Source: Bacteroidota bacterium | GTDB lineage: Bacteria > Bacteroidota > Bacteroidia > Bacteroidales > B18-G4 | Length of the DNA: 36,505 nucleotides | Direction: 5' to 3' | Assembly (NCBI GenBank): GCA_018831055.1 | Contig: JAHJRE010000110.1 | Span: forward strand, 1 to 36,505 | Shown here: positions 3,757-27,339 of the stretch, piece after piece | Layout of the letters: each line of letters starts with the position of its first letter | Position numbering within the stretch: the stretch's first letter is position 1 | Notes under the pieces: model-generated | Database searches by the model: none | What the model was told of the DNA's origin: nothing | What the model saw: only the letters and a program-made list of their open reading frames with translations | Position numbers and translations under genes: made by a program

Positions 3757-4788
3757 TCACTTCCCCCTCACAACCAACTTAATAACCAACACCAAAATCA
3801 ACAATACTAAAATCCCCCCCGATAACCAGTATGCCCATATATTCACTATTCTCGATTGAGCATACATCATATAGTCTTCAAACATAAACGACATGGGGTC
3901 AACCTTCCATTCCACTTTATTGCCTTCCAGCTTCGCGGAATTGGTTTCCATGATGATCCCCGGCAGTTCCGCTTCCACGGTATAGCTTTCCATTAAAAGA
4001 ACCTCTATTAAAAAATGCACCTTTTTGTTCAATTCCTGAAATATGGGAGGTTCAATGTCATTTAACTTCTTAACCGCAGGATTTTTTGTCCATTCATAAT
4101 AAAGCTCAATGTAATTGTCGGGATGATCCCAGTTATTGTCCAGATAATGCTTAATGCTATCCTGGTATAATATGACATCCTGTGACAACAACTCCTGATC
4201 ATCAAGTCCTGCAATAGCTTTTTGCAGCACCTTGATGATCTCCCGGCTCACCACATCCTCAAAGTACTCGTTCGCCCTTTCATCAGCCGATTCAAGCCTG
4301 GCCGAGTCAACTTTATTAAGCGCAATCTTCTGACCACTGAGCCATAAAATATCCTCCTGATCAAGGTAATCCTGATAATCATACTCCCTGAAGGGATTGG
4401 CGGCTTTGATAACTTCCCGGTATTTCGGGTATGAATAAAAGAAACCGAACGACTTTCCAATGTCGAAGTGCCGGTACAATTGTTTCCTCCATCCTGTGTC
4501 GGCCGCAACCTCATCGTTCAGCTCCTTCGACTTCCTGAAAGTCTTTGAATAGGTAAGGGAAAAATTATTGCTCCGGGTAGTATCTTTACTGTACTCTTTT
4601 ATCCAGGTGGAATCAACAGGATAAGGCAGGTTCTTACTAAAAAAAACATCCGAAGAATCACCCGTGATGGTGAATATCCTTGTGAAGGAGCCATCTTCGT
4701 GTATTACTGTGGTTACGGTCACCTCTCTGCAGGATGCGAGTGAAAACAGAAGTATGACCAATATGCTGAAAATTTGTTTTGCTTTCAT
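3757..4788 (-). CDS. Hypothetical lipoprotein with C-terminal transmembrane anchor (343 aa), co-operonic with the ECF sigma/anti-sigma pair
   Basis: N-terminus MKAKQIFSILVILLFSLASC matches a lipoprotein signal with a lipobox-like cysteine. The C-terminus IWAYWLSGGILVLLILVLVIKLVVRGK is a hydrophobic helix. The gene starts 11 bp after the upstream ORF's stop on the same strand. Confidence 0.6.
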   Translation of the reverse strand: MKAKQIFSILVILLFSLASCREVTVTTVIHEDGSFTRIFTITGDSSDVFFSKNLPYPVDSTWIKEYSKDTTRSNNFSLTYSKTFRKSKELNDEVAADTGWRKQLYRHFDIGKSFGFFYSYPKYREVIKAANPFREYDYQDYLDQEDILWLSGQKIALNKVDSARLESADERANEYFEDVVSREIIKVLQKAIAGLDDQELLSQDVILYQDSIKHYLDNNWDHPDNYIELYYEWTKNPAVKKLNDIEPPIFQELNKKVHFLIEVLLMESYTVEAELPGIIMETNSAKLEGNKVEWKVDPMSFMFEDYMMYAQSRIVNIWAYWLSGGILVLLILVLVIKLVVRGK

Positions 4789-4799: not shown

Positions 4800-5252
4800 T
4801 TAATTGTAATTATTTAAGGCTAACATCCTGGCTTTCTCTATTCTTCCCTTGACAAATCCCTCCGGTTCGTGTTCCTGCCCGGCAGCCATCATAACCTTTT
4901 TAACATCAGTATTGCTTAAAATGAACTCTAATCCTTTCAGCTGGCCGGATTTCTGAGAAAGCGAAGCATTCCTGTTTTCCTGCTGAATGACTTTGTCGAC
5001 AAAGATGTACTGCTCTATCCCAAATACAACCAACAGTGTAATGGATGCTGCAGCAAGAAATCTCACTGCCATAGAAATTGCCGTGCCATATCTCAGGATA
5101 AAACGGGGTGTTATTTCTTCCACCTCATCCTGAATCCCTTGCATTATGCTATCGGTCAGCTTCTCCGGGTTGTCCAGCACCGGATCCCTTTTCAGATTAC
5201 CAATGATTTTAACGTAAGCAGAATCATCGGCTATGTTTTTATTTCTGCTCAT
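4800..5252 (-). CDS. Putative anti-sigma factor (150 aa, single-pass membrane protein)
   Basis: Its start codon overlaps the ECF sigma stop by 4 bp (ATGA). It has a cytoplasmic N-terminus of about 65 aa and one transmembrane helix, AISMAVRFLAAASITLLVVFGI. Position and topology are typical of an ECF anti-sigma, but no diagnostic motif is present. Confidence 0.5.
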   Translation of the reverse strand: MSRNKNIADDSAYVKIIGNLKRDPVLDNPEKLTDSIMQGIQDEVEEITPRFILRYGTAISMAVRFLAAASITLLVVFGIEQYIFVDKVIQQENRNASLSQKSGQLKGLEFILSNTDVKKVMMAAGQEHEPEGFVKGRIEKARMLALNNYN

Positions 5253-5818
5253 TTGTTTTTCCTTTCACCGTTAAGTATATAGTTTAACTTTTCTTTTACT
5301 GCTTTCCTGGCATGATAAAGATTGCTTTTAACCTGTGTTTCGTCAATTTCCAGGATGGCTTCCACTTCTTCTGAACTCATTTCCTGGAGATCCCTCATTG
5401 CAAATACCAGCCGTTGCTTTTCAGGAAGTTTATCTGCCAGGAGTCTGATAATTTGTCCCAATTCTTTATTGTCCAGGATTAATTCCATTGAGTCTTCCTG
5501 CATCTGCTGTAGTTTATCTCCCAGATCATCGATCTTCATGGTATTGGCCCGCCGGATGGATCTGAACCTGTCAATAGCAGTATTTGTTACGATCCGGTAC
5601 ATCCAGGTGGTTAATTTCATTCGGGTATCATATTCACCTATTTTTCGCCATATCTTTATAAAACTTTCCTGGACGCTGTCCTTTGCTTCCTCCTCGTCGC
5701 AAAGTATCCTGAAGGCAAGGTTGTAAGCGTATTGCCGTTGTTCTTCGACAAGCTTCCGGAAAGCTTCCTGACTGCCGTTCTTTATTTCATTGATGATATC
5801 TCTGGTCACTATTTGCAT
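5249..5818 (-). CDS. RNA polymerase ECF-type sigma-70 factor (189 aa)
   Basis: The sigma-70 region 2 (...IKIWRKIGEYD...TWMYRIVTNTAIDRFRS...) and region 4 (...LPEKQRLVFAMRDLQEMSSEEVEAILEIDETQVKSNLYHARKAVKE...) have the ECF subfamily layout. Confidence 0.85.
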   Translation of the reverse strand: MQIVTRDIINEIKNGSQEAFRKLVEEQRQYAYNLAFRILCDEEEAKDSVQESFIKIWRKIGEYDTRMKLTTWMYRIVTNTAIDRFRSIRRANTMKIDDLGDKLQQMQEDSMELILDNKELGQIIRLLADKLPEKQRLVFAMRDLQEMSSEEVEAILEIDETQVKSNLYHARKAVKEKLNYILNGERKNK

Positions 5819-5874: not shown

Positions 5875-6603
5875 ATGATGAAAATTAACATTCGTATTTC
5901 CATTTATGTCATTATTTTACTTTTGGCATCGCTTTTTCTTACTTCCTGTCAATATCAAAACAACCCTTATGGTTTGGATATTGTTACCGATGTTTCCCAA
6001 TACAAGGAACTCATCGAAACTGATCCTGACCAGGAACTCATTGACCTGGAAAAATATATCCCGGGAATTGTTTTGGATATCCGTTATGCCACGGATAACA
6101 ACTTCACCGGGCAGAAGATATATGAAGCTCCAATGGCTTTTGCCAGGAAACCGGTGGCTGAAGCCCTTTTCCTGATACAGGAAGAACTGGGGAAATCAGG
6201 ACTTGGCCTGAAGATTTACGATGCCTACCGCCCTTATTCTGCCACCCTGAAATTTTACGAGGTTTATCCCGACACGACCTTCGTGGCGGCACCCTGGAAA
6301 GGCTCCGTTCACAATACGGGCTGTGCCGTTGATGTTTCGCTCGTTGATCTTAACACAGGATTAGAAATCGAAATGCCAACCCTCTTCGATGATTTCTCTG
6401 ATAAAGCATCCCATTCCTGCATGGATCTGCCGGAAACGGCCATACACAACAGACAGCTGCTGAAAGAGATTATGACCCGTTTCGGCTTTTCAATTTATGA
6501 GCCGGAATGGTGGCATTATAATTTTGCAGATAAAGGTGACTTCGGGATCATGGATATTCCCCTTTTACAAATATCTAAGGCCTATTCTGCATCGCCACAC
6601 TGA
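5875..6603 (+). CDS. D-alanyl-D-alanine dipeptidase, VanX/DdpX-like (peptidase M15D), lipoprotein
   Basis: A lipoprotein signal (LLASLFLTSCQ) is followed by ...YIPGIVLDIRYATDNNFTGQKIY...DAYRPYS... and the zinc-ligand motif SVHNTGCAVDVSL (S-x-H-x-x-G-x-A-x-D), which is characteristic of VanX-family dipeptidases. Confidence 0.78.
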   Translation: MMKINIRISIYVIILLLASLFLTSCQYQNNPYGLDIVTDVSQYKELIETDPDQELIDLEKYIPGIVLDIRYATDNNFTGQKIYEAPMAFARKPVAEALFLIQEELGKSGLGLKIYDAYRPYSATLKFYEVYPDTTFVAAPWKGSVHNTGCAVDVSLVDLNTGLEIEMPTLFDDFSDKASHSCMDLPETAIHNRQLLKEIMTRFGFSIYEPEWWHYNFADKGDFGIMDIPLLQISKAYSASPH

Positions 6604-7178
6604 AGCCTGAGCATGAAATTAACCGTGTTCAGATCTAAAGCATTGAACATTGCTTCAACATTATTGGTATAAACTGCTTCGGGTCCAAGCATTGCATCCT
6701 TAACAAGAAAGGCTTCAAAATCATAATTCATAGCGTCAAAATAAGTAGCAAGAACACATCCTGTTGAACTTAAACCGCATATAAAAAGTGTGTTAATACC
6801 TTTTTCCTCCAGTAGATCAAATAAACCGGTTTTATTGAATGCGCTGGGATATGTTTTAACAATTTGTGGATCATTTTCAGTAACCTGGAGTGTATCCGGA
6901 AATTCAAATTCCGGTGTGCCCGGTATGGGACCGAATTCTTCGCTTGTATGATAAACCCTGATCACTGGCAGATCATACATCCTGAATACCATAATAGTCC
7001 AGTTCATCCAGTTAAGCGCCGATGCCTGGTCTTCCTGTGAAGCCATTGACAAAAACTGGTTCTGAACATCCACCACCAGCAATGCCGGCTTCATTTCAAT
7101 CTTTTCTGTCCAGGATGATTGTGCTGAAATAGCATGGAAAACCAGCACCAGACAGGTAAGCAAAAGTGTCTTTTTCAT
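6582..7178 (-). CDS. Secreted isochorismatase-family (cysteine) hydrolase
   Basis: It has a signal peptide (MKKTLLLTCLVLVFHAISAQ), an N-terminal ALLVVDVQNQF block and a ...LFICGLSSTGCVLATYFDA... catalytic-cysteine block, both typical of the isochorismatase-like fold. Its 3' end overlaps the convergent dipeptidase gene by 22 bp. Confidence 0.6.
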   Translation of the reverse strand: MKKTLLLTCLVLVFHAISAQSSWTEKIEMKPALLVVDVQNQFLSMASQEDQASALNWMNWTIMVFRMYDLPVIRVYHTSEEFGPIPGTPEFEFPDTLQVTENDPQIVKTYPSAFNKTGLFDLLEEKGINTLFICGLSSTGCVLATYFDAMNYDFEAFLVKDAMLGPEAVYTNNVEAMFNALDLNTVNFMLRLQCGDAE

Positions 7179-7245: not shown

Positions 7246-8955
7246 CTATTTTTTTTGGTAACTCACAGGTCCGTTCTGATATCCAACTTCTTTTCTCCAC
7301 CATTCGGGATAACCGACTTCTTCAGCTATTTCAGGATTGTTGACATAGCCGTCGTCGTATTTTTGCACCAGGAACCAGCCCAGTTCCCACCACTGCTTTA
7401 CAACATTATCTGCGTTGCTGATGCAGGTTTCCGTGAGGATGCTTCTGGCCAGTTCAGGTGAAGAGGCATATGCTTCCTGTGCCTTTTTGTCCGTTTCCTG
7501 AGCAAGTAAAAATTCTTTCTCTTCAATTTCATTCTGGAGTTTCAGTATATCCTCTTTCATATATGAAAACTTCACGGCAGCCCAGTTTGCTACAAAATTG
7601 AAAGCCCACCAGGCAACATCCGTAGAAAATTTCTCGGTATTTCCGCTTTGGTATGATAAAGGCAGGTCGTTCATCCCTGTATAGAATGGCACAAAACAGG
7701 TAAGATATGGTTTATCCGGCCCGAACCAGCAAATTCCCCCAACAGCGTCCGGGAGCCAGCTCCTTCCCTGATTAACATATACATATCCTGCATAGAACAC
7801 CGAAATAGGTCTTTCCCAGGCACCGATCACCTCCTGTCCATCTTTGTTTGCATCATTCTGATTGCCATCGTATTTTCCGATCCAACGGTAAGGACAACCA
7901 AAGGGTCCGGCGGCCGGCCCCTGGGTCATGTCGAACTCCGTTCCTTCATAATGATCACGATGTAAAGACATTACATCTTTAGCATCCAGCTTTTGATCCG
8001 GGACAATGGAGAATGGATATTCGCGGGTATAACCATCTTCCACCCATGCACTGTATTTTGCTGAGGGTTTTACACGATCGTATATCCTCCAGACCCTGCG
8101 AAGGGAATAATAAGGATGGTTATATTCCCCGTAACTGACTGTTTTCAGCCAATCAAGTTTCCCTTGCGATGGATTCCACCATCCTCTTTTTTGCGCTGTC
8201 TCATGGAGATTTGCTGAAAACAACATATCAGGGTCTTCAGGATCTACATCTCTGATCCTGAATTCATTGGCGGCAGCGAATATCTGGCCATCCGGGACTT
8301 TTTTAGCTACCCACAGGCCGCCCAGGCTATCCATGGTTCCGCAACACATTTCTATTACCCAGCCTTCTTCAGGATCGCCGATGAGCAGGGTCTCGCCCGT
8401 ACCGTAATAGCCGTATGTATCAATCAGGTGCCCGATCAGTTCAACAGCCTCACGCGCTTTTGTGCACCTTTCCAGAGCAATACGCGACAACTCGGCGCTG
8501 TAAAAAATCCGCCGTCCGGAATCGGGTTGCAGCTCAATCTTCGCCCCGTCGGTGCACTCCCCTATCATAAGTTGATGCTCGTTCATTATGCCATAATTGG
8601 CATCGAAATAAGCATAGGTATGTGCAACCTGTGGAATAAAACCAATTGGTTTCGTGGCAGGCAGGCTGGGATCAAAATACCCCGGACCCCTGCTCATCCC
8701 TACATAACGGATATTGCCTCCTCCAAAACAACAAGGATCATAATAAACCGGCCGCATAGCACCTTCGGGGTGATCCATTGCCGGAACATAGATAATACGC
8801 TGGTCGCCCAGCTCATCATCATCAGAGTGGCTCACAAAAACGGAACCGTCTTTACTCGCCCCTTTTGTGACTAGAATGGTCGTGCATGGCATGGCAATTT
8901 CCGCCATTAACAGTAGCATAAATACTGCCAAAACATAATTACGAAGGTTTTTCAT
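7246..8955 (-). CDS. Peptidase C69 family dipeptidase (569 aa), secreted
   Basis: A signal peptide is followed immediately by CTTILVTKGASKDGSVFVSHSDD, the N-terminal nucleophile cysteine context of C69 / Ntn-hydrolase dipeptidases. Confidence 0.78.
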   Translation of the reverse strand: MKNLRNYVLAVFMLLLMAEIAMPCTTILVTKGASKDGSVFVSHSDDDELGDQRIIYVPAMDHPEGAMRPVYYDPCCFGGGNIRYVGMSRGPGYFDPSLPATKPIGFIPQVAHTYAYFDANYGIMNEHQLMIGECTDGAKIELQPDSGRRIFYSAELSRIALERCTKAREAVELIGHLIDTYGYYGTGETLLIGDPEEGWVIEMCCGTMDSLGGLWVAKKVPDGQIFAAANEFRIRDVDPEDPDMLFSANLHETAQKRGWWNPSQGKLDWLKTVSYGEYNHPYYSLRRVWRIYDRVKPSAKYSAWVEDGYTREYPFSIVPDQKLDAKDVMSLHRDHYEGTEFDMTQGPAAGPFGCPYRWIGKYDGNQNDANKDGQEVIGAWERPISVFYAGYVYVNQGRSWLPDAVGGICWFGPDKPYLTCFVPFYTGMNDLPLSYQSGNTEKFSTDVAWWAFNFVANWAAVKFSYMKEDILKLQNEIEEKEFLLAQETDKKAQEAYASSPELARSILTETCISNADNVVKQWWELGWFLVQKYDDGYVNNPEIAEEVGYPEWWRKEVGYQNGPVSYQKK

Positions 8956-9046
8956 GGTAACAGGCTTTTATATGATTCCCTTAAAATAGAAAGTAATCAA
9001 ATATAAGGCAAATCACATACGAAAGCAAGATTATTCTTTTACTCTG

Positions 9047-10111
9047 CTATTTGCCATACTCCAAACCATAACGGTTCAATATTTCGCTGTAAAGGGGCAA
9101 TTCTATCTTGCTGACCAAAACCGGATCAATTTCATGTATCAGGTCTTTATTGGTTGAAGCAAAAGAAAAATATTCCTTGGTATATGCGCTTGGTATCAAT
9201 AGAATTTTCTCTTCCAGGAATAAATGTTGTACCATGTACCTGAGTATGGCCTCATCGTATACAAAAGCCTGTAATATTTCTTTATTGACTGCATCCAGTC
9301 CTTTTCCAAGATCTTTCATGTTTTGTGATATGATACCGTATTCTTTCAGGAATTCTGCTGATGCCGAATTCTCAATGCTACCCACACTCACGCGTTGCAA
9401 ATCCTCCAGCCCCTTTACCGCTGATGATAAATTGTGTACCGTTAACGCTGAAGCAATGGCAGCAGTGAAACTGGATATCAAAACAATAGCCGTGAACATC
9501 CAGATTATGGAGATTATCCTGCCCATGATGGTTTTAGGTGTTTTATCCCCGTATCCCACCGTGGTCATTGTCACCGCCGACCACCAGATCCCATCACCAA
9601 GTCCCTTGATACCATCATTGAAATGATCTTTGTTTTTTCTCCTCTCAAGTAACCAGACTATGGTACCAAATATAACTATGATAAGAAAAAAAGCCGAGAC
9701 TATCCGAAGAAACTCCCATGACATCAATCCCCGGAAAATCGTAGTAAAAGTGCCTCCGGACTTTGCTTTCACCGCTATGGCCAGGTTGGTGACGTAAAAT
9801 GGTTGTGTGAAATAAAACTTCTTTATCCGTTCGGCAGTCACAGTCAATGGATTGATGCTAAGATCAACATCTCCATTCTCTATAGCCTGAAGTAACCCTC
9901 CCAGATCATATTCCCTGAATTCATAATCATAATGAAGATCCTCGGCTATTATTTTCCATAAATCAATAGATACTCCATTATATGTTTCACCATTTTTGAT
10001 TACAAACGGTGGCGCCTCCTTAATCCCTATTATCAGTTTCCTTTCCTGCGAATATCCTGAAAAACAACTAAAGATAACAGCGATGCCCAAAATCAAGACG
10101 TACCTTTTCAT
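9047..10111 (-). CDS. GluR0-like ligand-gated potassium channel: solute-binding lobe S1, then pore (M1–P–M2), then lobe S2
   Basis: It has a signal peptide. An SBP-family-3-like N-terminal lobe (KLIIGIKEAPPFVIK...GVSIDLW...) is followed by two hydrophobic helices flanking the K+ selectivity filter TMTTVGYGD, then a second binding-lobe segment. This is the split-SBP-plus-pore architecture of prokaryotic ionotropic glutamate receptor homologs. Confidence 0.72.
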   Translation of the reverse strand: MKRYVLILGIAVIFSCFSGYSQERKLIIGIKEAPPFVIKNGETYNGVSIDLWKIIAEDLHYDYEFREYDLGGLLQAIENGDVDLSINPLTVTAERIKKFYFTQPFYVTNLAIAVKAKSGGTFTTIFRGLMSWEFLRIVSAFFLIIVIFGTIVWLLERRKNKDHFNDGIKGLGDGIWWSAVTMTTVGYGDKTPKTIMGRIISIIWMFTAIVLISSFTAAIASALTVHNLSSAVKGLEDLQRVSVGSIENSASAEFLKEYGIISQNMKDLGKGLDAVNKEILQAFVYDEAILRYMVQHLFLEEKILLIPSAYTKEYFSFASTNKDLIHEIDPVLVSKIELPLYSEILNRYGLEYGK

Positions 10112-10641: not shown

Positions 10642-10797
10642 CAATTCAGAGCCTGGCAAGCCATTTTGTCACATATACAAATCTAAATATGACTTTTTGT
10701 AAAGGAAAGATGAATACTTATTGATTTGGCATGTTATTCGCTTAAACCTCAGCCAAAATCCACAAAGTTTAACGATATTTGTAAAAAAGCCATTACC

Positions 10798-11745
10798 ATG
10801 AGCGAAACCACAGAAAAAGTACAATGCCTGATCATTGGATCGGGGCCTGCAGGTTATACCGCAGCCATTTATGCAGCACGTGCCGACCTAAAACCTGTTA
10901 TTTATGAAGGTTTACAACCGGGCGGGCAGTTAACCACAACCACAGAAGTCGAAAATTTCCCGGGATACCCTGAGGGCATCACAGGGCCGGTTATGATGGA
11001 AGATTTAAAAAAGCAGGCACTTCGGTTTGAAACGGATGTGCGTTTTGGTTTGATCACCGGGGTCGACTTTTCCCAAAGGCCATTTAAAGTCAAAGCCGAC
11101 GACGGGAAGACCATCCTGGCCGAAACCGTGATCATAGCTACCGGCGCAACAGCCCAATGGTTGGGATTACCATCTGAATCGGAATATAACGGTTATGGCG
11201 TGTCGGCCTGTGCCACCTGCGACGGGTTTTTCTACCGCGGAAAGGTTGTGGCCGTTGTTGGCGGTGGGGATACGGCAGCAGAAGAAGCTACCTATCTCGC
11301 CAAGCTTTGCAAAAAGGTTTATCTCATCCACCGCCGTGATGAGCTCCGCGCTTCCAAAGCCATGCAGAAGAAAGTCCTGGAAACACCCAATATTGAGGTG
11401 CTCTGGAGCCATGTCACCAAAGAGATCGTTGGGAAAAAAGAAGGTTTCGCCAAGGCTGTTACAGGTGCCATCCTGCAAAATGTAAAAACCGGGGAAGAAA
11501 AAACGATCGATATCGATGGTTTCTTTGTAGCGATCGGACATAAGCCCAACACAGAGATCTTCAAAGGACAGCTTGAAACCGATGATCTGGGATATATCCG
11601 TACGAAGCCTGATTCGACCAAAACCAATATTGAAGGGGTGTTTGCCTGCGGCGATGTACAGGATCACGTCTTCCGCCAGGCCATAACAGCGGCCGGAACA
11701 GGATGCATGGCCGCTATCGAAGCGGAACGCTTCCTGTCACACTAA
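10798..11745 (+). CDS. trxB: Thioredoxin-disulfide reductase
   Basis: The FAD-binding GSGPAGYTAA motif, the redox-active CATCDG motif and the NADPH-binding GGGDTAAEEA motif are all present. The start is placed at the internal ATG (MSETTEKVQCLIIGSGPAG...) rather than at the ORF-track start 10726. Confidence 0.9.
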   Translation: MSETTEKVQCLIIGSGPAGYTAAIYAARADLKPVIYEGLQPGGQLTTTTEVENFPGYPEGITGPVMMEDLKKQALRFETDVRFGLITGVDFSQRPFKVKADDGKTILAETVIIATGATAQWLGLPSESEYNGYGVSACATCDGFFYRGKVVAVVGGGDTAAEEATYLAKLCKKVYLIHRRDELRASKAMQKKVLETPNIEVLWSHVTKEIVGKKEGFAKAVTGAILQNVKTGEEKTIDIDGFFVAIGHKPNTEIFKGQLETDDLGYIRTKPDSTKTNIEGVFACGDVQDHVFRQAITAAGTGCMAAIEAERFLSH

Positions 11746-11781: not shown

Positions 11782-13473
11782 CTACCGGTGAATTTGCCCG
11801 AGATAAAACGATGGGCTCACACCGGTAACTTTTTTAAAGGCATTATAAAAAGTTACCCGGTTACTGAATCCCGCGTCGGAGGCAATGGCTTCAAGGGTAA
11901 GGTTTTCATGAGCATTTTCCGCGAAAAGCCTCAATACTTCATTTACACGGTACTCGTTGATCAGGGTATTGAAATTCCTGGAAAAGTGATTGTTGATCAG
12001 TCCTGACAAAACATTTTTATTGGTATTAAGCCGGGCCGCAAGGATATCCAGAGATAAACCAGGGTCAAGGTAGGCTTTTTCACTTTCAAGAACCGTCTGT
12101 AACCGGGAAATCAATTCCGTTCCGGCTTCATGATTGCATAAACCTGTCCTGGGTCTTCTTGATTTGCCAATCATCACCCCCCTTTCCACCAGATCCTGCT
12201 GCTTTTCAACCAGTAACCGGTGAGCTTTTACCAGTTTGTGGTTTCGCCACAAAAGCAGTATTAACAGAACCAACAAAGAAACAAGCAGGATGATCAGCAT
12301 GAGATTCCTGGAAAAATAGATCCTGTTCTTTTCTTCCAGGTTCCTGATCTCCCATTGTTTTTCATTGACCTCATGCCGGATCATCAATTGAGACAGTTCT
12401 GCTTCCCTTTCGCGGTGGTTCAGACTGTCGCTGATTTTCCGCTCAAGCTTGTAATATTTCAATGCCTGCAAAGGCTCACCGTTGGCCTCGTATGCCTCGG
12501 AAAGCACCTTTGCAATTTCCGCCTTATCTTCCGACATTTCACCCTTAACCGCCTGAACATAAGCCTGCAGTCCGGTTTCAATGGCTCTGACAGGTTGCCC
12601 CAGCTTCAGCCACACGTTGGCAATATTCTTGAGGGTTCCGGCTTGCCTTCCCGTGGCGTGGATATGCTCCATTACCGCCAGGGCCGAATCGTAATACATC
12701 AGAGCATTCGGGTATTGGCCCATTTTATAATATATCAAACCGTAGTTGTTGAGCCCCACCGCCAAATCATTAAGGTTTTTTGCTTTCCAGGAAATCATGA
12801 CGGAGCGCTCTGCATAATATAAAGCACTGTCGAATATTTCCTGCATCAGGTAAATATTGCTGATGTTCCCAAGAACAGAATACAGCAGGGATGAATCAGT
12901 CATATCACGGCAATAGGCGTATGCTTTGAAATAACACTTTAGAGCGGCCTCAAGGCTGTCGCTATTCATGTAAGTATTGCCGATATTATTGTAGTCAGAT
13001 GCAATCAATCGAATATCCCCGCTTTGTCTGTCTATCTCAAGTGATCGGATGAAATAATTCAATCCTGAACGATAATCACCCATTTGGGAATAAATGATCC
13101 CGATGTTTGCATACAAATCCGAAACACCGGCAGAATCCCCGGTCTCACGCATGAACATCAGAGCCTGGGAATAATAACCCAGGGCATTGGGGTACTCTCC
13201 CTTTACCAGGGCAGAAGTTCCCATCAGATGCTTTGCCCTGGCCAGTCCGCGTGAATAGCCCAGTTCATCTGAAAGTTTCTCTGCCTGCAGGGCCAATGCA
13301 TAAGTTGAGTCAGGATAGGAGAAGACAACCTGCCTTGCGTTATTTAAAATGGAGTTTATCCTTATCGTATCGTTGGAATTGACCGCTGTGGTTTCATTGG
13401 GTAAAGCGGCATTAAGGAAGGCGGAGGAGCCTGTCCATACGAAAATTATGAAAAAAACTATCCTATTCCGCAT
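11782..13473 (-). CDS. Membrane-anchored TPR-repeat / AraC-family HTH transcriptional regulator (563 aa)
   Basis: It has a signal peptide, a long TPR-like repeat region (recurring ...LG.Y..AL.YY..AL...) and a hydrophobic helix (LMLIILLVSLLVLLILLLW). The C-terminal AraC-type HTH reads ...LDPGLSLDILAARLNTNKNVLSGLIN...RVNEVLRLF...EAIASDAGFSNRVTFYNAFKKVTGVSPSFY. Confidence 0.75.
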   Translation of the reverse strand: MRNRIVFFIIFVWTGSSAFLNAALPNETTAVNSNDTIRINSILNNARQVVFSYPDSTYALALQAEKLSDELGYSRGLARAKHLMGTSALVKGEYPNALGYYSQALMFMRETGDSAGVSDLYANIGIIYSQMGDYRSGLNYFIRSLEIDRQSGDIRLIASDYNNIGNTYMNSDSLEAALKCYFKAYAYCRDMTDSSLLYSVLGNISNIYLMQEIFDSALYYAERSVMISWKAKNLNDLAVGLNNYGLIYYKMGQYPNALMYYDSALAVMEHIHATGRQAGTLKNIANVWLKLGQPVRAIETGLQAYVQAVKGEMSEDKAEIAKVLSEAYEANGEPLQALKYYKLERKISDSLNHREREAELSQLMIRHEVNEKQWEIRNLEEKNRIYFSRNLMLIILLVSLLVLLILLLWRNHKLVKAHRLLVEKQQDLVERGVMIGKSRRPRTGLCNHEAGTELISRLQTVLESEKAYLDPGLSLDILAARLNTNKNVLSGLINNHFSRNFNTLINEYRVNEVLRLFAENAHENLTLEAIASDAGFSNRVTFYNAFKKVTGVSPSFYLGQIHR

Positions 13474-13557: not shown

Positions 13558-16500
13558 CTAATTTATTAATACTCTATGAACCTGCATCTTTTCAGTCATA
13601 TGGATGCTAACAAAATAAATCCCCGAAGGCAAACCAAGCGTTTCCTGCTGATTGTGACTTCCGGTCAATGTGAACCTCAGCAACTCCCTTCCTGAAATAT
13701 CCGTCACAGAAGCCTCTCCCCTTTCACCATCCGGATTCAGGATATAGATGATGTCATTGTAATGAAATACCTGCAAAGGATGCATCATTACCGCGTCTTC
13801 TATCCCGGTTATATCCTTAAAATGCAGGAAGAAACGGCCCGTTCCGCTTTCATCCACCCAGGTGGTGTAACGCTCATTTTTCAGGTTGGTGAAGGTGTTT
13901 GTCTGGCGGTCTTCAAGGAAGAGGGGGATGCTTTCCAATTGCATTGTCTCGGCTGCAAACTCAATCTGCCGGGCCTCCGGAACATCTATACCAACATTGA
14001 CAACTATGGATTCTATGTTTTCCGGGGGCAGGGCCTGTATGGCAAAATCAACACCATTGTCTTCGATAAGCCGGGTATAGAGAGCGAGTTCAGGATTTCC
14101 CTTCATTTTTCCGACATCGTAGGATGGATCCAGGCCGGGCGTCATACCTGAAACTAATAAAATCTCAGTTTTGTTATATTGTTCTCCGGTACTTGCATAT
14201 AATCGCAAGCCCGGGTGATCGCTTTCAGTTTCATTTTTATAATAGGCGGATGTACCGTGTTTACGTATGCTCGTATTGAAATTCAGTGTTGCCCCGTTAC
14301 TGGCGGCCATAACCATAAAACCCTGGCCGGGTGAGGCGTAGAATGCAGCATCAGCGTTTGCAACCGCATCGTAATCGGCATTGCTTTTCCCGTCCCAGCC
14401 GGCGCTTTCATCCCAAAGGTAAATGGCTTCATATGAATCATTCAATGCAGCAGTATTTTGTGTCAGGAAATTATTGGTAGCATCTGCTCCGGTGTTAATG
14501 GCAATCGTTGAGCTGAAAGGATTACCAACAAGATTGGCACCCTCAAATGAACCTCCGGTTTTGGTGAGATTAATGCTCTGATTGGAAGTATGGAGGGGAC
14601 CGGATAAGGTAATGGTTTTATCTGTAGTCACATAATTTACTGCATATCCTTTGCAATCCGTAAAACCTTCTTCGTCCATTAACGTATTGGTTCCGCTGCC
14701 ATCCGCCCCATTCAGAATATCTATCCAGTAACCGGTATAAGAACCTGATGTATAGCTCTCTTCCCAGCGGTAGAATTGGTTGGATGAACTTCCGGGTGTC
14801 CCCAGCCCAAGATTTAATGCATCAAAATTTCCGCTGGTATTCACAGGATCTGAAATATAATGCCATCTGTCGTGGGTAAGAAAGCGCTCAGCTTTAATAC
14901 TTCCGTCGACTGTCCCGGTTAAGATCAGTGATCCCGTGCCTGTAGCATCCGATTCAAGGGTAAAATCACCTGGGCTGCTCAGGATATTATTATAAAGGTT
15001 ATGTCCGATAGACAACTGGCCACCGGGTTCCAGATCAAGGGAAGAGAGCGGGAGCATATACAACGACTTTGTTATGGTAAGTTTGTTCCCCGGATAAATA
15101 TTCGTATGGCCTATATTAAATACCGAACCATGAATGGTATGTGAACCCGAATAATTAAAGGTGAGGTCAACTCCGCTTCCTACCACCAGGTGATTACATG
15201 CAATGGCTGCACCAATGGTCGGATCACTCCCGCTTTGATTATGCACACCCACGTTATCTGTTGAAGTTGGTACACTCTCCCGGCTCCAGTTTGCGGCTGT
15301 GCTCCAATTGCTGGATGAGGTGTTGAGCCAGGTGTTGAAGGCGGTGGAGGTGGTCCAGGCGGGGCTATTCGTCAATGTCGCATCATTTGTGTTGCTAGTC
15401 AAATCCTGTAAAGCACTTCCTGAGTAATTGTCAAAGGTATAATAAGCAACCAGCCCTGCTTCATCGCCTTCCAGAGTTTTACACATGTTATCCCGGATCT
15501 CTTCTTCTGTGCGGACATCCGACCAAATACGAAGTTCGTCAAGCTTTCCATTGAAATATTGTTCATATCCATCTCGTTTCGCAATAATTATATTCCTGGA
15601 TAAAATACTTAAACTAACATTGGTAGAACCGCTCAGAACTCCATCAAAATAAAGATAAGCGGTTGTGCCATTATAGACGCCAGCTATATGGTGCCAGTTG
15701 TTATCATTCACTCCAAGCCATATTTCTGCTATACCACTCCCATTTCCAATACCGAAAATTATCGCAAGACTATTTGCAATTGTTAAAAAAAACCAATTAC
15801 TAGAAACATCTCTTCCATTATCTATAATTCCGTTAAAAGTTGATGTTGTTCCATCCATCTGCATCCAAAACTCAACAGTAAAATTTGAATTTTGAAGAGA
15901 AGCATTTGCCGGAATGGTTCCGTAATGTGATGATCCGTTAAAATCCAGGCAGTATTTCGGTCCGAAAAAAGCCGGGGAAGCTGACCACTCATTGCCATTC
16001 ATGTTTGTTAATGTACCATTAAGATTGTTGGAAGTAACATCATCCAGTGAGGTTCCGCTGGATTCATTAAAGTTATAATATGCAACCAGGCCGCTCTCTG
16101 AACCGGTAAATTCCTGGTACATTCCTGCCTGAATTTGTTCCTCCGTTTTTACAAAATCCCAAACCCGTACCTCATCGATCTTACCATTCCAGTAATATTG
16201 TGATACCCAAGGGTAAACACCTATTTTAAAAGACCCTGCATTTGCAATGGTACCTGAAAATGTTGAAGGCTGTGATCCGACATTTTTACCGTTTATATAT
16301 AGGATAATACTACCTCCACTGGTCCAGGTCATGGCCACATGCTGCCATAATCCGGTTGTCAGGGTTCCTGCCTGTATATATTTTTGTATACCGCTTGCAT
16401 CCCAGACTGACCCATATAATAATGTACCCGATGTTTCAAGGTCGAAAGCGGTTGAAGCCGGCAGCCATTCTACATTTGATTTTCCCATAATGGTGTGCGG

Positions 16501-16683
16501 TGCGGTTAAATCATCAGGGTAGATCCAGGCTTCAATTGTAAATGAAGTGAAATCAAAAACATCATCATCTGCAACCTCCACGTAATCATTTGCCCCATCA
16601 AAATCCAACGCGTTGTTCTGCGCCATCAAATGGGTGTTCAAACCAATAAACAATAGAATCAATAAAAAGACTTTGGCTTTCAT
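13558..16683 (-). CDS. T9SS-secreted LamG (concanavalin A-like lectin) multidomain protein (1041 aa)
   Basis: A signal peptide is followed by at least two LamG-type modules (LDFDGANDYVEV...EAWIYPD...DEVRVWDFVKTEEQI and LDFNGSSHYGT...DELRIWSDVRTEEEIRDNM). The C-terminal Por/T9SS sorting domain reads ...LPSGIYFVSIHMTEKMQVHRVLIN. Confidence 0.75.
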   Translation of the reverse strand: MKAKVFLLILLFIGLNTHLMAQNNALDFDGANDYVEVADDDVFDFTSFTIEAWIYPDDLTAPHTIMGKSNVEWLPASTAFDLETSGTLLYGSVWDASGIQKYIQAGTLTTGLWQHVAMTWTSGGSIILYINGKNVGSQPSTFSGTIANAGSFKIGVYPWVSQYYWNGKIDEVRVWDFVKTEEQIQAGMYQEFTGSESGLVAYYNFNESSGTSLDDVTSNNLNGTLTNMNGNEWSASPAFFGPKYCLDFNGSSHYGTIPANASLQNSNFTVEFWMQMDGTTSTFNGIIDNGRDVSSNWFFLTIANSLAIIFGIGNGSGIAEIWLGVNDNNWHHIAGVYNGTTAYLYFDGVLSGSTNVSLSILSRNIIIAKRDGYEQYFNGKLDELRIWSDVRTEEEIRDNMCKTLEGDEAGLVAYYTFDNYSGSALQDLTSNTNDATLTNSPAWTTSTAFNTWLNTSSSNWSTAANWSRESVPTSTDNVGVHNQSGSDPTIGAAIACNHLVVGSGVDLTFNYSGSHTIHGSVFNIGHTNIYPGNKLTITKSLYMLPLSSLDLEPGGQLSIGHNLYNNILSSPGDFTLESDATGTGSLILTGTVDGSIKAERFLTHDRWHYISDPVNTSGNFDALNLGLGTPGSSSNQFYRWEESYTSGSYTGYWIDILNGADGSGTNTLMDEEGFTDCKGYAVNYVTTDKTITLSGPLHTSNQSINLTKTGGSFEGANLVGNPFSSTIAINTGADATNNFLTQNTAALNDSYEAIYLWDESAGWDGKSNADYDAVANADAAFYASPGQGFMVMAASNGATLNFNTSIRKHGTSAYYKNETESDHPGLRLYASTGEQYNKTEILLVSGMTPGLDPSYDVGKMKGNPELALYTRLIEDNGVDFAIQALPPENIESIVVNVGIDVPEARQIEFAAETMQLESIPLFLEDRQTNTFTNLKNERYTTWVDESGTGRFFLHFKDITGIEDAVMMHPLQVFHYNDIIYILNPDGERGEASVTDISGRELLRFTLTGSHNQQETLGLPSGIYFVSIHMTEKMQVHRVLIN

Positions 16684-17148: not shown

Positions 17149-20100
17149 CTAATACGTCACCAACACCTTACGGCTCACAACTCCCTCGCTTGCCCGGAAA
17201 CACACCACATACAAGCCTCCGGGAAGGTTATGGGAATAGCTTTGTTCAGATTCTCCATCCAAAATGCCCGATAACACAGGTTTGCAGGTCATATCGAATA
17301 CGGCAAACTGCCCGGTAAGCTGTTCAGGATTGCTTATATGCAACGTATTACCACCGTTCCAGGCTAAAATATTTATAACCGAACCGGTAAACTGTTTTTC
17401 TCCGATCCCCACCGTGCTGAAATGCAGCAGGAAGCGCCCGGGATCATCGCCTTCGGTTGCGGTAAAGCTGTAAATGGGTTCATTGGTCAGGTTATGGGTA
17501 GTCTGGGTTTGGAGGTCGGTTAAGAAAACCGGAAGATCAGGATCAAGATCATCCGTTCCTTCAATCCGGATGTAAAATTGTGTTCCCTCATTTTTTATAA
17601 AATATAAGGGAATCTGTATGCTTTCACTAAGCTCCGGCAGACCGTTGGTCGATACTGCCTTCCCTTCGGTTTGCGTATAAAACTGAGGTGCATACCCCGG
17701 CAGATACCAGCAATCATAAGCAATATCATAACTCTGGCTTGCTTCAGGTATAAAACGGATCACCGTTTCCTGGGTAGTATGGTACTCAACATCATGAACC
17801 GTAAGCTTTAACGTGTTGACTCCTGTTGATTTATACCAAACATCCGTTTCATGACTTCTTAATGCCTTCGGGATGATCAGGCTTCCTGTCTGGTTTTCTG
17901 CCACATACACCATAAACCCTTGCATTGGCGGGATCATCTCTCCATTATCTATATCCGTATAGGAAGCGCTGCTTTCCTGCCAGATCTTTGCCGTGCTGCC
18001 TATATTCTGCTGCTGCCAATTGAGATCCCATTCAATGTCCCATGTCCAAATAACACCACACGGAAATGGATTTCCCAGCAAATGCCACCCTCTGTTCTCC
18101 GAAGTAAGGGTGTGTGTGAGGTTAGTGATGCTTACATTGGAATTATTCCAGGTTCCGCTGAATGACTTGGTCTGATCTGATCCGTAAGCCACCAGATATC
18201 CCTTTCCCACCGTGAAGGTGCTTTCAAAACTGCTGTTCCAGCTTCCATCTCCGGCCTTGGTGTTGATCCAGTAATTCGTGGGTTCATCCCAACTGTAAAA
18301 GTCCTCATTTACTGTGGGGGGATCGGATACAAAACCCGGCTGAATGGCCTGAGCTGAAACGGGAGAAGAAAGAAAATGCCAGCCATGATTAGCATCGGTC
18401 CATTGTGCAATATAGCGCTGAATTTCATAACTTCCGGATCCTGAATACGTACCGTCAGCAACAACGGAACCTGTTCCTGATGATGTACTTTCCAGAAGGA
18501 AAGTTCCCTCATTGACAATACCACTGTATATGTCGATCATCCCTCCCGGCCTGACCGTTAAAGTTTTTCCTGAGGTAATAACCGCCTTATCAACACGCAT
18601 TCCACAATTGTCGGGTATATCAAAATCTGAGTTTACCAGAAAGTTTTCATCCACATCCAATGGATTGGAAAAGGTAATATCCGCACTGGCGCCTATCACC
18701 AGGTTCCGGCATTCGATGTTCCAGTCATAGGATGGTTGTACCGAGGCCCCCCCGTAATAATAAACCCCGGTGTTATGGCCGGTTGTGGGGTATGATCCGA
18801 GGCTCCAGTTGGAGGTGGTACGCCAGTTGCTGTTGGTTGTATTCAACCAGGTGTTGAAGGCGGAAGAAGCTGTCCAGGATGGAATGGTATAAGAACCTCC
18901 ACCACTTCCCTGCCAGGTGCCGTCAATATCATTACCCGAGATATCCTGCAGGCTTGTCCCGGTAACATTATCAAATGTATAATAAGCAGCCAGGTTGCTT
19001 TCCTGGGTTACATCGAGCATCCGGCACATATTTTCACGAAGCTCCAATGGTGTTCTTACATCATTCCATATCCTGAGTTCATCAATGGAACCATTCATCA
19101 GACGGCCACCCGGTTCACCGGGTGAATCCCCGATCCTTGGATTTTGTGAAGAGGACAAGATCGATGTCGAATGGCTCGAGGAATACACTTCAACACCGTT
19201 AACATAAAGCCGGACATCAGATCCGTCGTAAGTAGCTGCGACATGCTGCCAGGTATTCAACGTCAATACCCCGGTGGCAATAGTGACTGCCCAGTTATAA
19301 CCCCCTGAATACGACATCGTAAAATCAAGGTCACCTCCAGCCCCTCCAAACCGGAATACATAACCCTCACTGTTCGCTCCCCCCCAATAATCATTTCCGA
19401 TGATCGTGTTCTTAAAATATTCATCCTTGAAATCAGTCGGGTATATCCAGGCTTCAATTGAAATATTGGTACCGGTAATATTTAATGCACTTTCTAATGC
19501 TACGTAGTCGTCAGTCCCATCAAAACCCAGGCACTGCTTTGGCCCGAAAAGTGCCGGGGATGTCTGCCATTCATTACCGCTCATATTTGTGAGGGTACCA
19601 TTAAAACTCCCTTTCGTGTCAATTGCAGTAGTTCCGGTGGTCTCGTTAAGCTTATAGTAAGCGACAAGATCCGAACCCGGACTGATGATCTCCCGGTACA
19701 TGTTCTGCCGGATCTCATCCTGGGTCCTGGCATCGTTCCATATCCTTACTTCATCCATCAATCCGTCAAAATATCTTTCGGTGCCCGATCCACCAATTTC
19801 CATAGTACTCATACCATTGGTAATATTCCCGGTATGGGCAACGGTTTTCTCCAGGATACCATTCACATATATTCTCAGATTCGATCCATCATAGGTACCT
19901 GCAATGTGATACCATTTGTTTACTAGCATTTGAGTTGTGCCGGTGCATTTTTTATTTCCGGAGCCTGTCGTAACTACAAATTGGGGAATATCATTGTCTT
20001 CCAGTTCGCCAGGATGGCTATCCCCAATCCTGAGTAAGGATGAAGCATCGTTGTGCCCGGCAACATTTGATATCCTGGCATCCGGAACCGGATCATTGAA

Positions 20101-20274
20101 TGAATGCGGATAAACCCAGGCTTCTATTGTGATTCCTGAAAATCCATTGGAACTTAAGCCTGTAATGCTTATATAATCATTATCGCCGGCAAAGTCGAGT
20201 AAGTTGTTCTGTGCCATGGAATTAATCCCTAAAATCCAAAGCAAAACAATTGACAATAATATTTTAGTCTTCAT
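17149..20274 (-). CDS. T9SS-secreted LamG multidomain protein, paralog of 13558-16683 (also 1041 aa)
   Basis: It has the same architecture and is collinear with its paralog, for example IDELRIWNDVRTPLELRENMCRML...AAYYTFDNVTGTSLQD...SAFNTWLNTTNSNW against LDELRIWSDVRTEEEIRDNMCKTL...VAYYTFDNYSGSALQD...TAFNTWLNTSSSNW. The T9SS C-terminal domain is ...GGLYVVCFRASEGVVSRKVLVTY. Confidence 0.75.
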   Translation of the reverse strand: MKTKILLSIVLLWILGINSMAQNNLLDFAGDNDYISITGLSSNGFSGITIEAWVYPHSFNDPVPDARISNVAGHNDASSLLRIGDSHPGELEDNDIPQFVVTTGSGNKKCTGTTQMLVNKWYHIAGTYDGSNLRIYVNGILEKTVAHTGNITNGMSTMEIGGSGTERYFDGLMDEVRIWNDARTQDEIRQNMYREIISPGSDLVAYYKLNETTGTTAIDTKGSFNGTLTNMSGNEWQTSPALFGPKQCLGFDGTDDYVALESALNITGTNISIEAWIYPTDFKDEYFKNTIIGNDYWGGANSEGYVFRFGGAGGDLDFTMSYSGGYNWAVTIATGVLTLNTWQHVAATYDGSDVRLYVNGVEVYSSSHSTSILSSSQNPRIGDSPGEPGGRLMNGSIDELRIWNDVRTPLELRENMCRMLDVTQESNLAAYYTFDNVTGTSLQDISGNDIDGTWQGSGGGSYTIPSWTASSAFNTWLNTTNSNWRTTSNWSLGSYPTTGHNTGVYYYGGASVQPSYDWNIECRNLVIGASADITFSNPLDVDENFLVNSDFDIPDNCGMRVDKAVITSGKTLTVRPGGMIDIYSGIVNEGTFLLESTSSGTGSVVADGTYSGSGSYEIQRYIAQWTDANHGWHFLSSPVSAQAIQPGFVSDPPTVNEDFYSWDEPTNYWINTKAGDGSWNSSFESTFTVGKGYLVAYGSDQTKSFSGTWNNSNVSITNLTHTLTSENRGWHLLGNPFPCGVIWTWDIEWDLNWQQQNIGSTAKIWQESSASYTDIDNGEMIPPMQGFMVYVAENQTGSLIIPKALRSHETDVWYKSTGVNTLKLTVHDVEYHTTQETVIRFIPEASQSYDIAYDCWYLPGYAPQFYTQTEGKAVSTNGLPELSESIQIPLYFIKNEGTQFYIRIEGTDDLDPDLPVFLTDLQTQTTHNLTNEPIYSFTATEGDDPGRFLLHFSTVGIGEKQFTGSVINILAWNGGNTLHISNPEQLTGQFAVFDMTCKPVLSGILDGESEQSYSHNLPGGLYVVCFRASEGVVSRKVLVTY

Positions 20275-20625: not shown

Positions 20626-20718
20626 AAAAAAACCTTAAACCAATCCCATAGTATTTATAACTTTGGCAAGATTGGTAAATCTTAACAACATTTGGGATCA
20701 AAAGAAAAATCTCAGAGT

Positions 20719-22437
20719 ATGCTTAAAAGATTGTTGCACCTGTTAACCTTACTGCTTTTTGCTGGCATTCAAACGATTACATCTCAGAACAACACAGATG
20801 AAAGGCTATTCAGCCAACTTGATTCCCTGGAAGGGGAAGAGTTCAGGAAGAGTGTTGCTATTGTTCTTGACTCCATTTCCAGAATACCCGATTATCAATC
20901 TAAAAAAGCATACGTTAATTCTATCTTTACTATAACAGCTCAAAAGGATGAAATTGCACATATCCAGTCGTTGGTGCATACCGCCAGACTTACCGGCTCT
21001 TCCTCCAAAAAGCTTTTTGACAAGGCCTATCAAATTGCTTTCAAGCATAATCGTATCGACGATATGTGCCTTGTAGAACATGCCAGGGGATTGCATTATA
21101 TAGCAGAAAAAAAGTTCGACTCCGCTATGATCCATATTCTCAGGTACCGGGATATGACCCCGGAAGATACTAAAGGCGAAGGCTACAGAAATATCATTAA
21201 CCTCCTGGGAGATATTTATTACTATGCCGGATTGTATAACCAGGCAAGGGATATTTATTTTAACTTATACACACAATATAAAACAGATAATATCTGGAAC
21301 TTCTACAGGCCATACGTTATGATGAACAATCTCGGACAAATTGCCCTGTACTCCGGCGATATGTCTGAAGCAAAAAAATGGTTTATCCAATCGCTTGAAC
21401 GGGCAGACCAATATCTGCATACTTCCTACCGCAATAATACAATGGCCTATACGAGAATCAAACTTGCCGAAACAGAACTGGAATCGGGGAATCTGGACAG
21501 TGCCCGGATGCTGCTTGACGAAGTTGACAAATATCCTGAAACTACCCTTCATGAAGATGTTTTTCAGGAATATCTTTTCTGCAAAACAAAAATGCTGCTT
21601 GCTCAGGGAAAAGCAAACGAAGCCTTTAACACAGCCCATCTGCTGAAACCATCCGACTCTGTGTCATTTAACCAATATCGTTTTATTCCTGACATATATC
21701 TGCTGCTTTCGGATATTTACCTCCAGCAAAATGATTCTGCTTTGGCCTTTACGCATCTGCAGAAATATCAGAAAATCTCCGACTCCCTGCATAAAAGCGA
21801 AAACATCGCACAGTCAATGATTATCCTTGCCAACCGGAACCATGAACTTACCCGGAACGAACTGAAGTCAACAAAACAACGAAACCGGACACTCTACGGT
21901 GGACTGGTGGTTCTTTTAACCGTACTTCTCATTGTACTGTTCCAATACAGAAGCTTGTACCGGTCCAAACTTAAACTGGTCAGAAAATCGATGGAGAATA
22001 TTGGTGGTTTTGATTTACCTGAATTGAAAAAGGAAGCAGAACAATTACAAAACCATACAAATGAAACTGATTTACAAGAACAAAGAAAACTAATCAATAG
22101 GTTACGGGAATACATGGAATCCCAAAAACCATATTTGGATCCCGGGCTTAATATCCAGGAAACGGCAAAACAATTAACCACCAACCGGACTTACTTATCA
22201 CGAGCCATCAATACTCAACTGGGAACAACTTTTCCTAACTTCATCAACAACTACCGTATCCAGGAAGCCATCCGTCTCATCACGACCGGGTTTACCAAAA
22301 ACCACACTCAGGAAGCACTCGCCAAAAGATCGGGCTTTGCCAGCCGCACAGTCTTTACCTCCGCCTTTAAAAAAATCACCGGAGTAGTACCCTCGTTCTT
22401 TATTGCAAAGTATAAAGATGTTGAGAGGGAAGGGTGA
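20719..22437 (+). CDS. Membrane-anchored TPR / AraC-family HTH regulator, paralog of 11782-13473
   Basis: It has a signal peptide (MLKRLLHLLTLLLFAGIQTITSQ), a TPR-like region and a transmembrane helix (LYGGLVVLLTVLLIVLFQY). The C-terminal AraC HTH reads ...YLDPGLNIQETAKQLTTNRTYLSRAIN...RIQEAIRLI...EALAKRSGFASRTVFTSAFKKITGVVPSFF. An alternative upstream ATG lies at 20692. Confidence 0.75.
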   Translation: MLKRLLHLLTLLLFAGIQTITSQNNTDERLFSQLDSLEGEEFRKSVAIVLDSISRIPDYQSKKAYVNSIFTITAQKDEIAHIQSLVHTARLTGSSSKKLFDKAYQIAFKHNRIDDMCLVEHARGLHYIAEKKFDSAMIHILRYRDMTPEDTKGEGYRNIINLLGDIYYYAGLYNQARDIYFNLYTQYKTDNIWNFYRPYVMMNNLGQIALYSGDMSEAKKWFIQSLERADQYLHTSYRNNTMAYTRIKLAETELESGNLDSARMLLDEVDKYPETTLHEDVFQEYLFCKTKMLLAQGKANEAFNTAHLLKPSDSVSFNQYRFIPDIYLLLSDIYLQQNDSALAFTHLQKYQKISDSLHKSENIAQSMIILANRNHELTRNELKSTKQRNRTLYGGLVVLLTVLLIVLFQYRSLYRSKLKLVRKSMENIGGFDLPELKKEAEQLQNHTNETDLQEQRKLINRLREYMESQKPYLDPGLNIQETAKQLTTNRTYLSRAINTQLGTTFPNFINNYRIQEAIRLITTGFTKNHTQEALAKRSGFASRTVFTSAFKKITGVVPSFFIAKYKDVEREG

Positions 22438-22442
22438 AAAAT

Positions 22443-27331: not shown

Positions 27332-27339
27332 ACCCTTAC

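Follow-up and report, generated by a model that had tools for sequence, protein, structure and literature searches.

A putative GluR0-type, amino-acid-gated potassium channel encoded beside peptidase genes in a member of the Bacteroidales

The Channel Gene and Its Product

The contig JAHJRE010000110.1 of a Bacteroidota bacterium from the order Bacteroidales (assembly GCA_018831055.1) was analysed over positions 1 to 36,505 of its forward strand, and this whole stretch is referred to here as the window. Its minus strand carries, at 9047..10111, a gene that very probably encodes one subunit of a GluR0-type prokaryotic homologue of the ionotropic glutamate receptors (iGluRs), most likely an amino-acid-gated and K+-selective one. 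Among prokaryotes, the accepted prototype of these receptors is the GluR0-type channel. An earlier interpretation made from the letters alone (the sequence-only reading) had placed an open reading frame (ORF) here without naming its strand, had recognised the GluR0 architecture, in which a pore lies between two ligand-binding segments (S1 and S2), and had suggested that adjacent peptidases supply the ligand.

The ORF list and its translation confirm this ORF: 354 codons and a stop fill the interval exactly, with the ATG at 10111 and the stop codon at 9047-9049. The plus strand of the same interval contains many stops; an opposite-strand shadow ORF at 9108..9626 (plus strand, 172 residues) was rejected, having no Pfam match. 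The segments of the gene and the evidence for each are listed below, with M1 and M2 for the transmembrane helices.

9047..10111, minus strand: whole ORF, probable GluR0-type ligand-gated K+ channel subunit (four Pfam families, AlphaFold2 (AF2) model, Foldseek)
10046..10111, minus strand: signal peptide, residues 1-22, MKR, hydrophobic core and SGYS before QE, with a putative cleavage site (hydropathy, inspection)
9752..10045, minus strand: S1 lobe segment, residues 23-120, with P88, T90, T92 and R95 (Lig_chan-Glu_bd and the N-terminal part of SBP_bac_3, alignments)
9644..9751, minus strand: pre-M1 helix, residues 121-129, and M1 transmembrane helix, residues 132-156 (AF2 helices, hydropathy peak at 137-155)
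9530..9643, minus strand: residues 157-194, with the RRKNK loop (predicted cytoplasmic), the pore helix (168-184) and the filter strand (AF2, Ion_trans_2, Lig_chan)
9545..9562, minus strand: TVGYGD K+ channel signature, residues 184-189 (translation)
9434..9529, minus strand: M2 inner helix, equivalent to eukaryotic M3, residues 195-226, with the gate-region motif SSFTAAIASALTV (AF2 helix, GluA2 alignment)
9050..9433, minus strand: S2 lobe segment, residues 227-354, with S249/S251 and D286, where the protein ends without an M4 (2pyy and 1ii5/1iit alignments)

The N-terminus of the protein reads MKRYVLILGIAVIFSCFSGYS followed by QERK and is leader-like, and all 36 aligned relatives (43-94% identity) start with a variable MK plus hydrophobic stretch. 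About 100 hydrophilic residues follow the leader, then a hydrophobic helix (residues 137-155), the basic loop ERRKNKDH and the pore stretch GIWWSAVTMTTVGYGDKTPKT, which contains the TMTTVGYGD filter that the sequence-only reading had picked out. Past the second hydrophobic helix (residues 199-217), some 130 hydrophilic residues run to the C-terminus. The hydropathy profile thus has three hydrophobic segments only, namely the signal-like residues 1-22, M1 at 137-155 and M2 at 199-217, and neither this profile nor the AF2 model has a third transmembrane segment or an M4 after S2. There is no amino-terminal domain (ATD), and S1 begins directly after the leader.

Domain Matches and Ligand-Binding Lobes

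Four Pfam families match the protein above their gathering scores. SBP_bac_3 (9.8e-21) covers residues 26-349 in a single stretch and, therefore, the two halves of its fold sit on either side of the pore. Lig_chan (7.9e-19) covers residues 142-242, Ion_trans_2 (5.1e-16) residues 141-224, and Lig_chan-Glu_bd (5.8e-10) residues 28-116. The architecture is S1/M1-P-M2/S2 (P being the pore loop) in one polypeptide, with a split family-3 solute-binding fold. A domain search had been proposed as a check on the sequence-only reading, and both lobes come out of it as similar to solute-binding proteins (SBPs). In NCBIfam, GlnH-type binding proteins (through S1 alone) and K+ channels are matched only partially and below threshold, and the S1-pore-S2 architecture has no curated naming model for bacteria there.

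For comparison with solved structures, the pore was excised and the lobes were joined into one S1-S2 fusion query. This query matches the ligand-binding core of Nostoc GluR0 (2pyy) at 2e-18 with an alignment over both lobes, and that of Synechocystis GluR0 (Slr1257; 1ii5/1iit) at 9e-14 over query residues 5-168, reaching into S2. Soluble binding proteins are matched as well, GlnBP at 1e-17 and the GlnPQ binding domains at 4e-21. The 2pyy alignment pairs TAER and V(Y/F)D, while S1 aligns with GlnBP, with the Nostoc protein and with the 'PLTIT..R' of GluA2. When the whole channel is used as the query, the best solved structures are the plant receptor GLR3.4 and the AMPA receptor GluA2 (E ~1e-17), in alignments that begin at the end of S1, take in M1, P and M2 and reach the start of S2. 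Here the gate region SSFTAAIASALTV aligns residue for residue with SSYTANLAAFLTV of GluA2 (8/13 identical).

Structure Model and Membrane Topology

An AF2 model built on the 36 relatives has a mean predicted local distance difference test score (pLDDT) of 85.9. The model is without Met1, so that protein numbering, used throughout, is model numbering + 1. It places, in order, a pre-M1 helix (121-129), M1 (132-156), a 17-residue pore helix (168-184), an extended filter and M2 (195-226), and the two flanks of the pore combine into one alpha/beta bilobed domain. This is the arrangement for which the sequence-only reading had recommended building a model. Foldseek searches against the PDB return iGluR chains comprising the ligand-binding domain (LBD) and the transmembrane domain (TMD) for all of the top 50 hits, with ~370 aligned columns, E values of 1e-20 to 1e-19 and TM scores of 0.5-0.6. 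Thus, Pfam, the sequence-to-structure matches, AF2 and Foldseek all support the S1-pore-S2 architecture.

Since S1 and S2 form one domain and lie on the same side of the membrane, the chain between them must cross the membrane an even number of times, with M1 and M2 running in opposite directions. Two spanning helices already give an even number, and the pore helix with the filter would then have to be re-entrant. Basic residues can be read from the sequence after M1 (R157, R158, K159 and K161) and after the filter (K190, K193 and R198), and a cytoplasmic placement of these regions fits the positive-inside rule. We infer that the orientation is that of iGluRs and GluR0, inverted relative to KcsA, with periplasmic lobes and a P-loop that enters from the cytoplasm. 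For Synechocystis GluR0 itself, K+ conduction, plasma-membrane localisation and an extracellular position of both termini were shown experimentally (PMC13099474).

Conserved Residues and the Probable Ligand

In prokaryotic iGluR channels, glutamate is bound by an S1 arginine, which contacts the alpha-carboxylate, and by an S2 aspartate, which contacts the alpha-amino group; both are conserved in all of these channels, and 'Group 1' of them is defined by a K+ filter (Ger et al. 2010, PMC2950845). In the protein described here, R95 is the alpha-carboxylate arginine and D286 the alpha-amino aspartate by these definitions, and the K+ filter is present.

Conservation was examined in the 36 relatives, in an alignment (A1) whose numbering is protein numbering - 1. 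The invariant positions of S1 include P88, T92 and R95. In the pore, W177, S178, V180, T181, M182, V185, G186, Y187, G188, D189 and K190 are invariant, and the gate region adds T216, A217, L223 and T224. In S2, D286 does not vary, and a segment 'S-x-S-A-E-F' is conserved. Regular-expression motif counts over 80 related loci were also made but not used, being too strict and partly circular (the loci had been fetched with VGYGDK patterns).

Because the lobes are of family 3, the amino-acid type, and keep both the arginine and the aspartate intact, the ligand is most probably a free alpha-amino acid. For the same reason a dipeptide, which the sequence-only reading had also considered, is unlikely as the ligand; peptide-binding SBPs constitute another, larger family.

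Size, Spread and Naming of the Family

The channel family is large, widespread and already recognised, and is under-annotated rather than new. A word-indexed search scored 8,000 candidates, of which more than 5,175 have E<=1e-5, and an exhaustive search of 50%-identity representatives finds 969 at E<=1e-30 and 3,440 at E<=1e-10. All 120 of the 120 relatives listed carry SBP_bac_3, Lig_chan and Ion_trans_2 within a length of 335-374 residues. Databases that name them use 'transporter substrate-binding domain-containing protein' and 'polar amino acid transport system substrate-binding protein'.

In a scan of one genome per species, at least 583 genomes have a relative. Most of these belong to Bacteroidota (Bacteroidales, Flavobacteriaceae, Cytophagales and Saprospiraceae), and the other carriers include Ignavibacteriales, Desulfobacterales, Pseudomonas, Verrucomicrobiota and Methylomirabilis. 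In the literature, GluR0 homologues of Bacteroidetes were met with in one incidental paper only, and the phylum is not mentioned in the text of Ger et al. 2010 (PMC2950845). The channel is thus one more member of a very large, Bacteroidota-centred clade of GluR0-type channels that are mostly labelled as binding proteins of ATP-binding cassette (ABC) transporters. The compactness of this clade (~355 residues), together with its canonical K+ filter and SYTANLAAF-like gate, could make one of its members convenient for structural or electrophysiological work and for correcting the annotation.

The Peptidase Neighbourhood and Its Conservation

Three enzyme genes follow the channel gene, and their Pfam domains agree with the description given in the sequence-only reading. 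The assignment of signal and lipoprotein leaders to these enzymes rests on visual inspection.

7246..8955, minus strand: C69 dipeptidase (Peptidase_C69, Pfam 3e-57)
6582..7178, minus strand: isochorismatase-like hydrolase with a leader (Pfam Isochorismatase)
5875..6603, plus strand: DdpX/VanX-like D-Ala-D-Ala dipeptidase (Pfam Peptidase_M15) with a lipobox-like LTSC; NCBIfam match at 1e-43, below cut-off

The C69 family is usually described as cytoplasmic. In the window, the leader of the C69 dipeptidase stops right before Cys24 (EIAMP, then CTTILV), a residue that we take to match the N-terminal catalytic cysteine of the family. If this cysteine is catalytic, cleavage of the leader would expose the nucleophile, and the enzyme would be a secreted form of the family. 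The apparent signal peptide of the isochorismatase-like hydrolase is likewise unusual for its family. The gene for this hydrolase and the DdpX gene are convergent, and their 3' ends overlap by 22 bp.

The channel, C69 and isochorismatase genes are co-directional, with spacers of 91 bp (channel to C69) and 67 bp (C69 to isochorismatase). The 91-bp spacer has no terminator-like site, and when sigma-70 and terminator signals were scanned for, none rose above the background of shuffled sequence. A Bacteroidetes-type -7 box, TATATTTG, lies at 9005..8998 on the minus strand, ~43 nt upstream of the C69 start. C69 may have a promoter of its own at TATATTTG; the evidence for it is weak, because the -7 motif TANNTTTG, with 34 matches in the window where 28 are expected, shows no enrichment.

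The conservation of this context was examined in 80 related genome loci, whose channel relatives are 38-56% identical to the protein and which extend up to 10 kb on each side, most of them with the full 10 kb. Nine flanking proteins of the window were compared with these loci by tblastn, the channel serving as the positive control, and homologues of the C69, isochorismatase-like and DdpX enzymes were found in 0/80 loci. All-against-all clustering of the ORFs flanking the channel gene (four per side), in the 78 loci with a called channel ORF, found no peptidase and no family-wide partner. It revealed genus-level synteny only, such as a block in Christiangramia, Salegentibacter and Gramella.

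Closer relatives give a similar picture. A 58% identical relative (P0004) is encoded between a histidine kinase gene and one for a GH106 glycosidase, and a 59% identical one (P0003) between trxB and a DUF2937 gene, in both cases without the three enzymes. The order TrxB-PNPOx-channel-C69-isochorismatase is kept only in a relative of 94% identity (P0001), on a contig with 89% nucleotide identity over 4.8 kb. There, a 395-residue gene without a Pfam match (L081 4846..6033) separates the isochorismatase gene from a DdpX remnant, and the nucleotide similarity to the window ends at window position 6571. Synteny at such proximity says nothing about function. The peptidase context belongs to one shallow lineage and has no inferential weight for the ligand, so that the proposal of a ligand made by the adjacent peptidases is left without comparative support. 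The channel gene appears to behave as a stand-alone gene, not as a member of a peptidase operon.

The only neighbour that recurs across lineages is trxB (10726..11745, plus strand), which adjoins the channel gene or lies close to it not only in the window but also in the 59% identical relative and in two flavobacterial genomes (L085/L086, L074, L080). This recurrence is probably residual synteny with a housekeeping gene. The listed TTG start of trxB at 10726 is probably too far upstream, the likely start being the ATG of MSETTEKV.

Proposed Mechanism and Alternative Explanations

By homology to Synechocystis GluR0 and the eukaryotic iGluRs, four subunits would assemble around a pore in the inner membrane. 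Binding of a free alpha-amino acid in the periplasmic cleft between S1 and S2 would close the clamshell, which would pull on the M2-S2 linker and open the bundle-crossing gate formed by SSFTAAIASALTV. K+ would then move along its electrochemical gradient through the cytoplasm-facing filter. A likely use would be to link K+ flux, membrane potential or cell volume to the amino acids available outside the cell.

Some points weigh against this interpretation. We infer the identity of the ligand, the selectivity for K+, the tetramer and the topology, and for the pore region the comparison covered eukaryotic iGluRs and K+ channel profiles. The predicted re-entrance of the P-loop rests on secondary structure, the topology argument and the Foldseek superposition. 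Lastly, the signal peptide was judged by inspection, which favours a type-I signal over a lipobox, as Cys16 is not conserved.

A rival explanation, which extends the sequence-only reading, ties the function of the channel to the C69 dipeptidase, the isochorismatase-like hydrolase and DdpX; its ligand would be an amino acid (e.g., D-Ala) or a dipeptide that these enzymes set free in the periplasm. The shared strand and short gaps of the channel, C69 and isochorismatase genes, with no terminator-like site between the first two, are consistent with this, as are the hydrophobic leaders and expected domains of all three enzymes and the gene order retained in the 94% identical relative. In addition, the D-Ala binder DalS (4dz1), which is a family-3 binding protein, is matched at 2e-8. 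However, none of the three enzymes occurs at any of the 80 related loci, the 58-59% identical relatives have unrelated neighbours, and the clustering points to genus-level synteny alone. Even in the 94% identical relative, the 395-residue gene intervenes between isochorismatase and DdpX. The -7 box upstream of C69 also argues, if weakly, for separate transcription, and a dipeptide ligand would be at odds with the placement of peptide binders in a different family. Such coupling is therefore quite improbable. A version confined to this lineage, where the channel would be co-transcribed with the secreted C69 and isochorismatase-like enzymes and would sense an amino acid they release (perhaps D-Ala, or something else formed when cell wall or peptides are degraded), is very improbable. 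If it were true, extracellular peptide degradation would be coupled to K+ flux and membrane potential, and a GluR0-type receptor would have been rewired.

Another explanation concerns the role of the binding domain. The protein might conduct K+ and need its periplasmic domain for structural reasons, without this domain serving as an amino-acid gate in the living cell. It would then act chiefly in volume responses to osmotic change or high K+, or in the sensing of tension, as has been discussed for Synechocystis GluR0. GluR0 was found to support K+ uptake in E. coli, to cause a volume phenotype in high KCl, to need its soluble domains and possibly to respond to tension (PMC13099474). However, all 36 diverse relatives retain the binding arginine and aspartate, and 'S-x-S-A-E-F' is conserved in S2. 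This argues for continued selection on amino-acid binding, and we regard a pure conduit as unlikely. The database names suggest instead that the protein is the binding component of an ABC importer, and NCBIfam gives partial matches to GlnH, HisJ and ArtJ, all within S1 and far below cut-offs (a score of 68 against a cut-off of 303; equivalog scores 5- to 30-fold under theirs). This is refuted by the architecture, in which a complete pore module with TVGYGD interrupts the SBP fold, and its probability is practically nil. Furthermore, no ABC permease or ATPase was found among the 27 window ORFs scanned with Pfam, which include every large ORF from 3757 to 13473, and binding-protein annotations of such channels were flagged as errors earlier (Ger et al. 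2010, PMC2950845).

An amino-acid-gated K+ channel of the GluR0 type thus remains the preferred identification. It leaves the current picture of the GluR0 family unchanged; the one unusual idea, a peptidase-derived ligand, is unsupported.

Other Genes in the Window

Two tandem paralogues, 13558..16683 and 17149..20274 (both minus strand), encode proteins of 1041 residues each that are 32% identical, begin with a signal-like N-terminus and have two Laminin_G_3 (LamG) domains each. On either side of the pair lies a gene for a regulator with tetratricopeptide repeats (TPR) and an AraC helix-turn-helix (HTH) domain, at 11782..13473 (minus strand) and 20692..22437 (plus strand). A LamG protein similar to this pair is encoded near the channel gene of another locus (L082).

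An extracytoplasmic function (ECF) sigma factor gene (5249..5818, minus strand) overlaps by 4 bp with the gene for a 150-residue membrane protein without a Pfam match (4800..5252, minus strand), likely an anti-sigma factor; a 343-residue ORF, also without a Pfam match (3757..4788), comes next after it. At the other end of the window is a class-I lanthipeptide-type set (32200..36413, plus strand), which consists of a LanC-like cyclase (32200..33399) and the N-terminal (33454..35526) and C-terminal (35523..36413) parts of a lantibiotic dehydratase; the division of the dehydratase into two ORFs represents a split LanB. Housekeeping and other genes occupy 22434..31525. An SPFH/Band-7 protein is encoded there on the minus strand (30092..31525), and the others encode a cation diffusion facilitator (CDF) efflux transporter (22434..23555), the FGAM synthase PurL (23624..27331), a short-chain dehydrogenase (27307..28113) and an AMP-binding acyl-CoA ligase-like protein (28183..29958).

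Comparison with Known Systems

The two-transmembrane K+ channels of the KcsA type have the same M1-pore helix-TVGYGD-M2 module (Ion_trans_2, 5e-16). In the present protein, however, this module sits between two periplasmic lobes and is predicted to be inverted in the membrane, and the gate would be controlled by an extracellular clamshell rather than by pH, voltage or cytoplasmic domains. Periplasmic binding proteins, such as GlnH/GlnBP of E. coli (1ggg/1wdn) and the substrate-binding domains of GlnPQ (6h30), have homologous lobes (E 1e-17 to 4e-21). In contrast to them, the channel is not soluble, has a pore module in place of the first inter-lobe hinge strand, and has no ABC partners among the 27 window ORFs scanned.

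Eukaryotic iGluRs (GluA2 and GLR3.4) provide the best full-length matches in sequence and fold and have the same LBD-TMD wiring. The gate motif of GluA2 M3 is recognisably kept (SSFTAAIASALTV against SSYTANLAAFLTV), and P88, T90 and R95 of the channel align with a proline, a threonine and an arginine of GluA2, presumably P478, T480 and R485. Only the LBD-TMD core is common, and identity is only ~18-20%; the ATD, M4 and the C-terminal domain are all absent from the channel. Its filter is a canonical K+ filter, in contrast to the non-selective cation pore with a Q/R/N site. Assignment as a eukaryotic-type iGluR (ATD, LBD and M1/M3/M4 with a pore that is not K+-selective) was rejected, as the protein has no ATD, no M4 and a TVGYGD filter.

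The closest known systems are GluR0 of Synechocystis (Slr1257; 1ii5/1iit/1iiw) and of Nostoc punctiforme (2pyy). They have the same order of signal peptide, S1, M1, P, M2 and S2, without an ATD or M4. The channel has in common with GluR0 and 'Group 1' the K+ signature GYG in the P-loop and a core of the family-3 SBP type, with an arginine in S1 and an aspartate in S2. It differs from GluR0 in being shorter, with 354 residues compared to what we take to be ~397, and in coming from a Bacteroidota-centred clade that goes unmentioned in the text of the 2010 survey.

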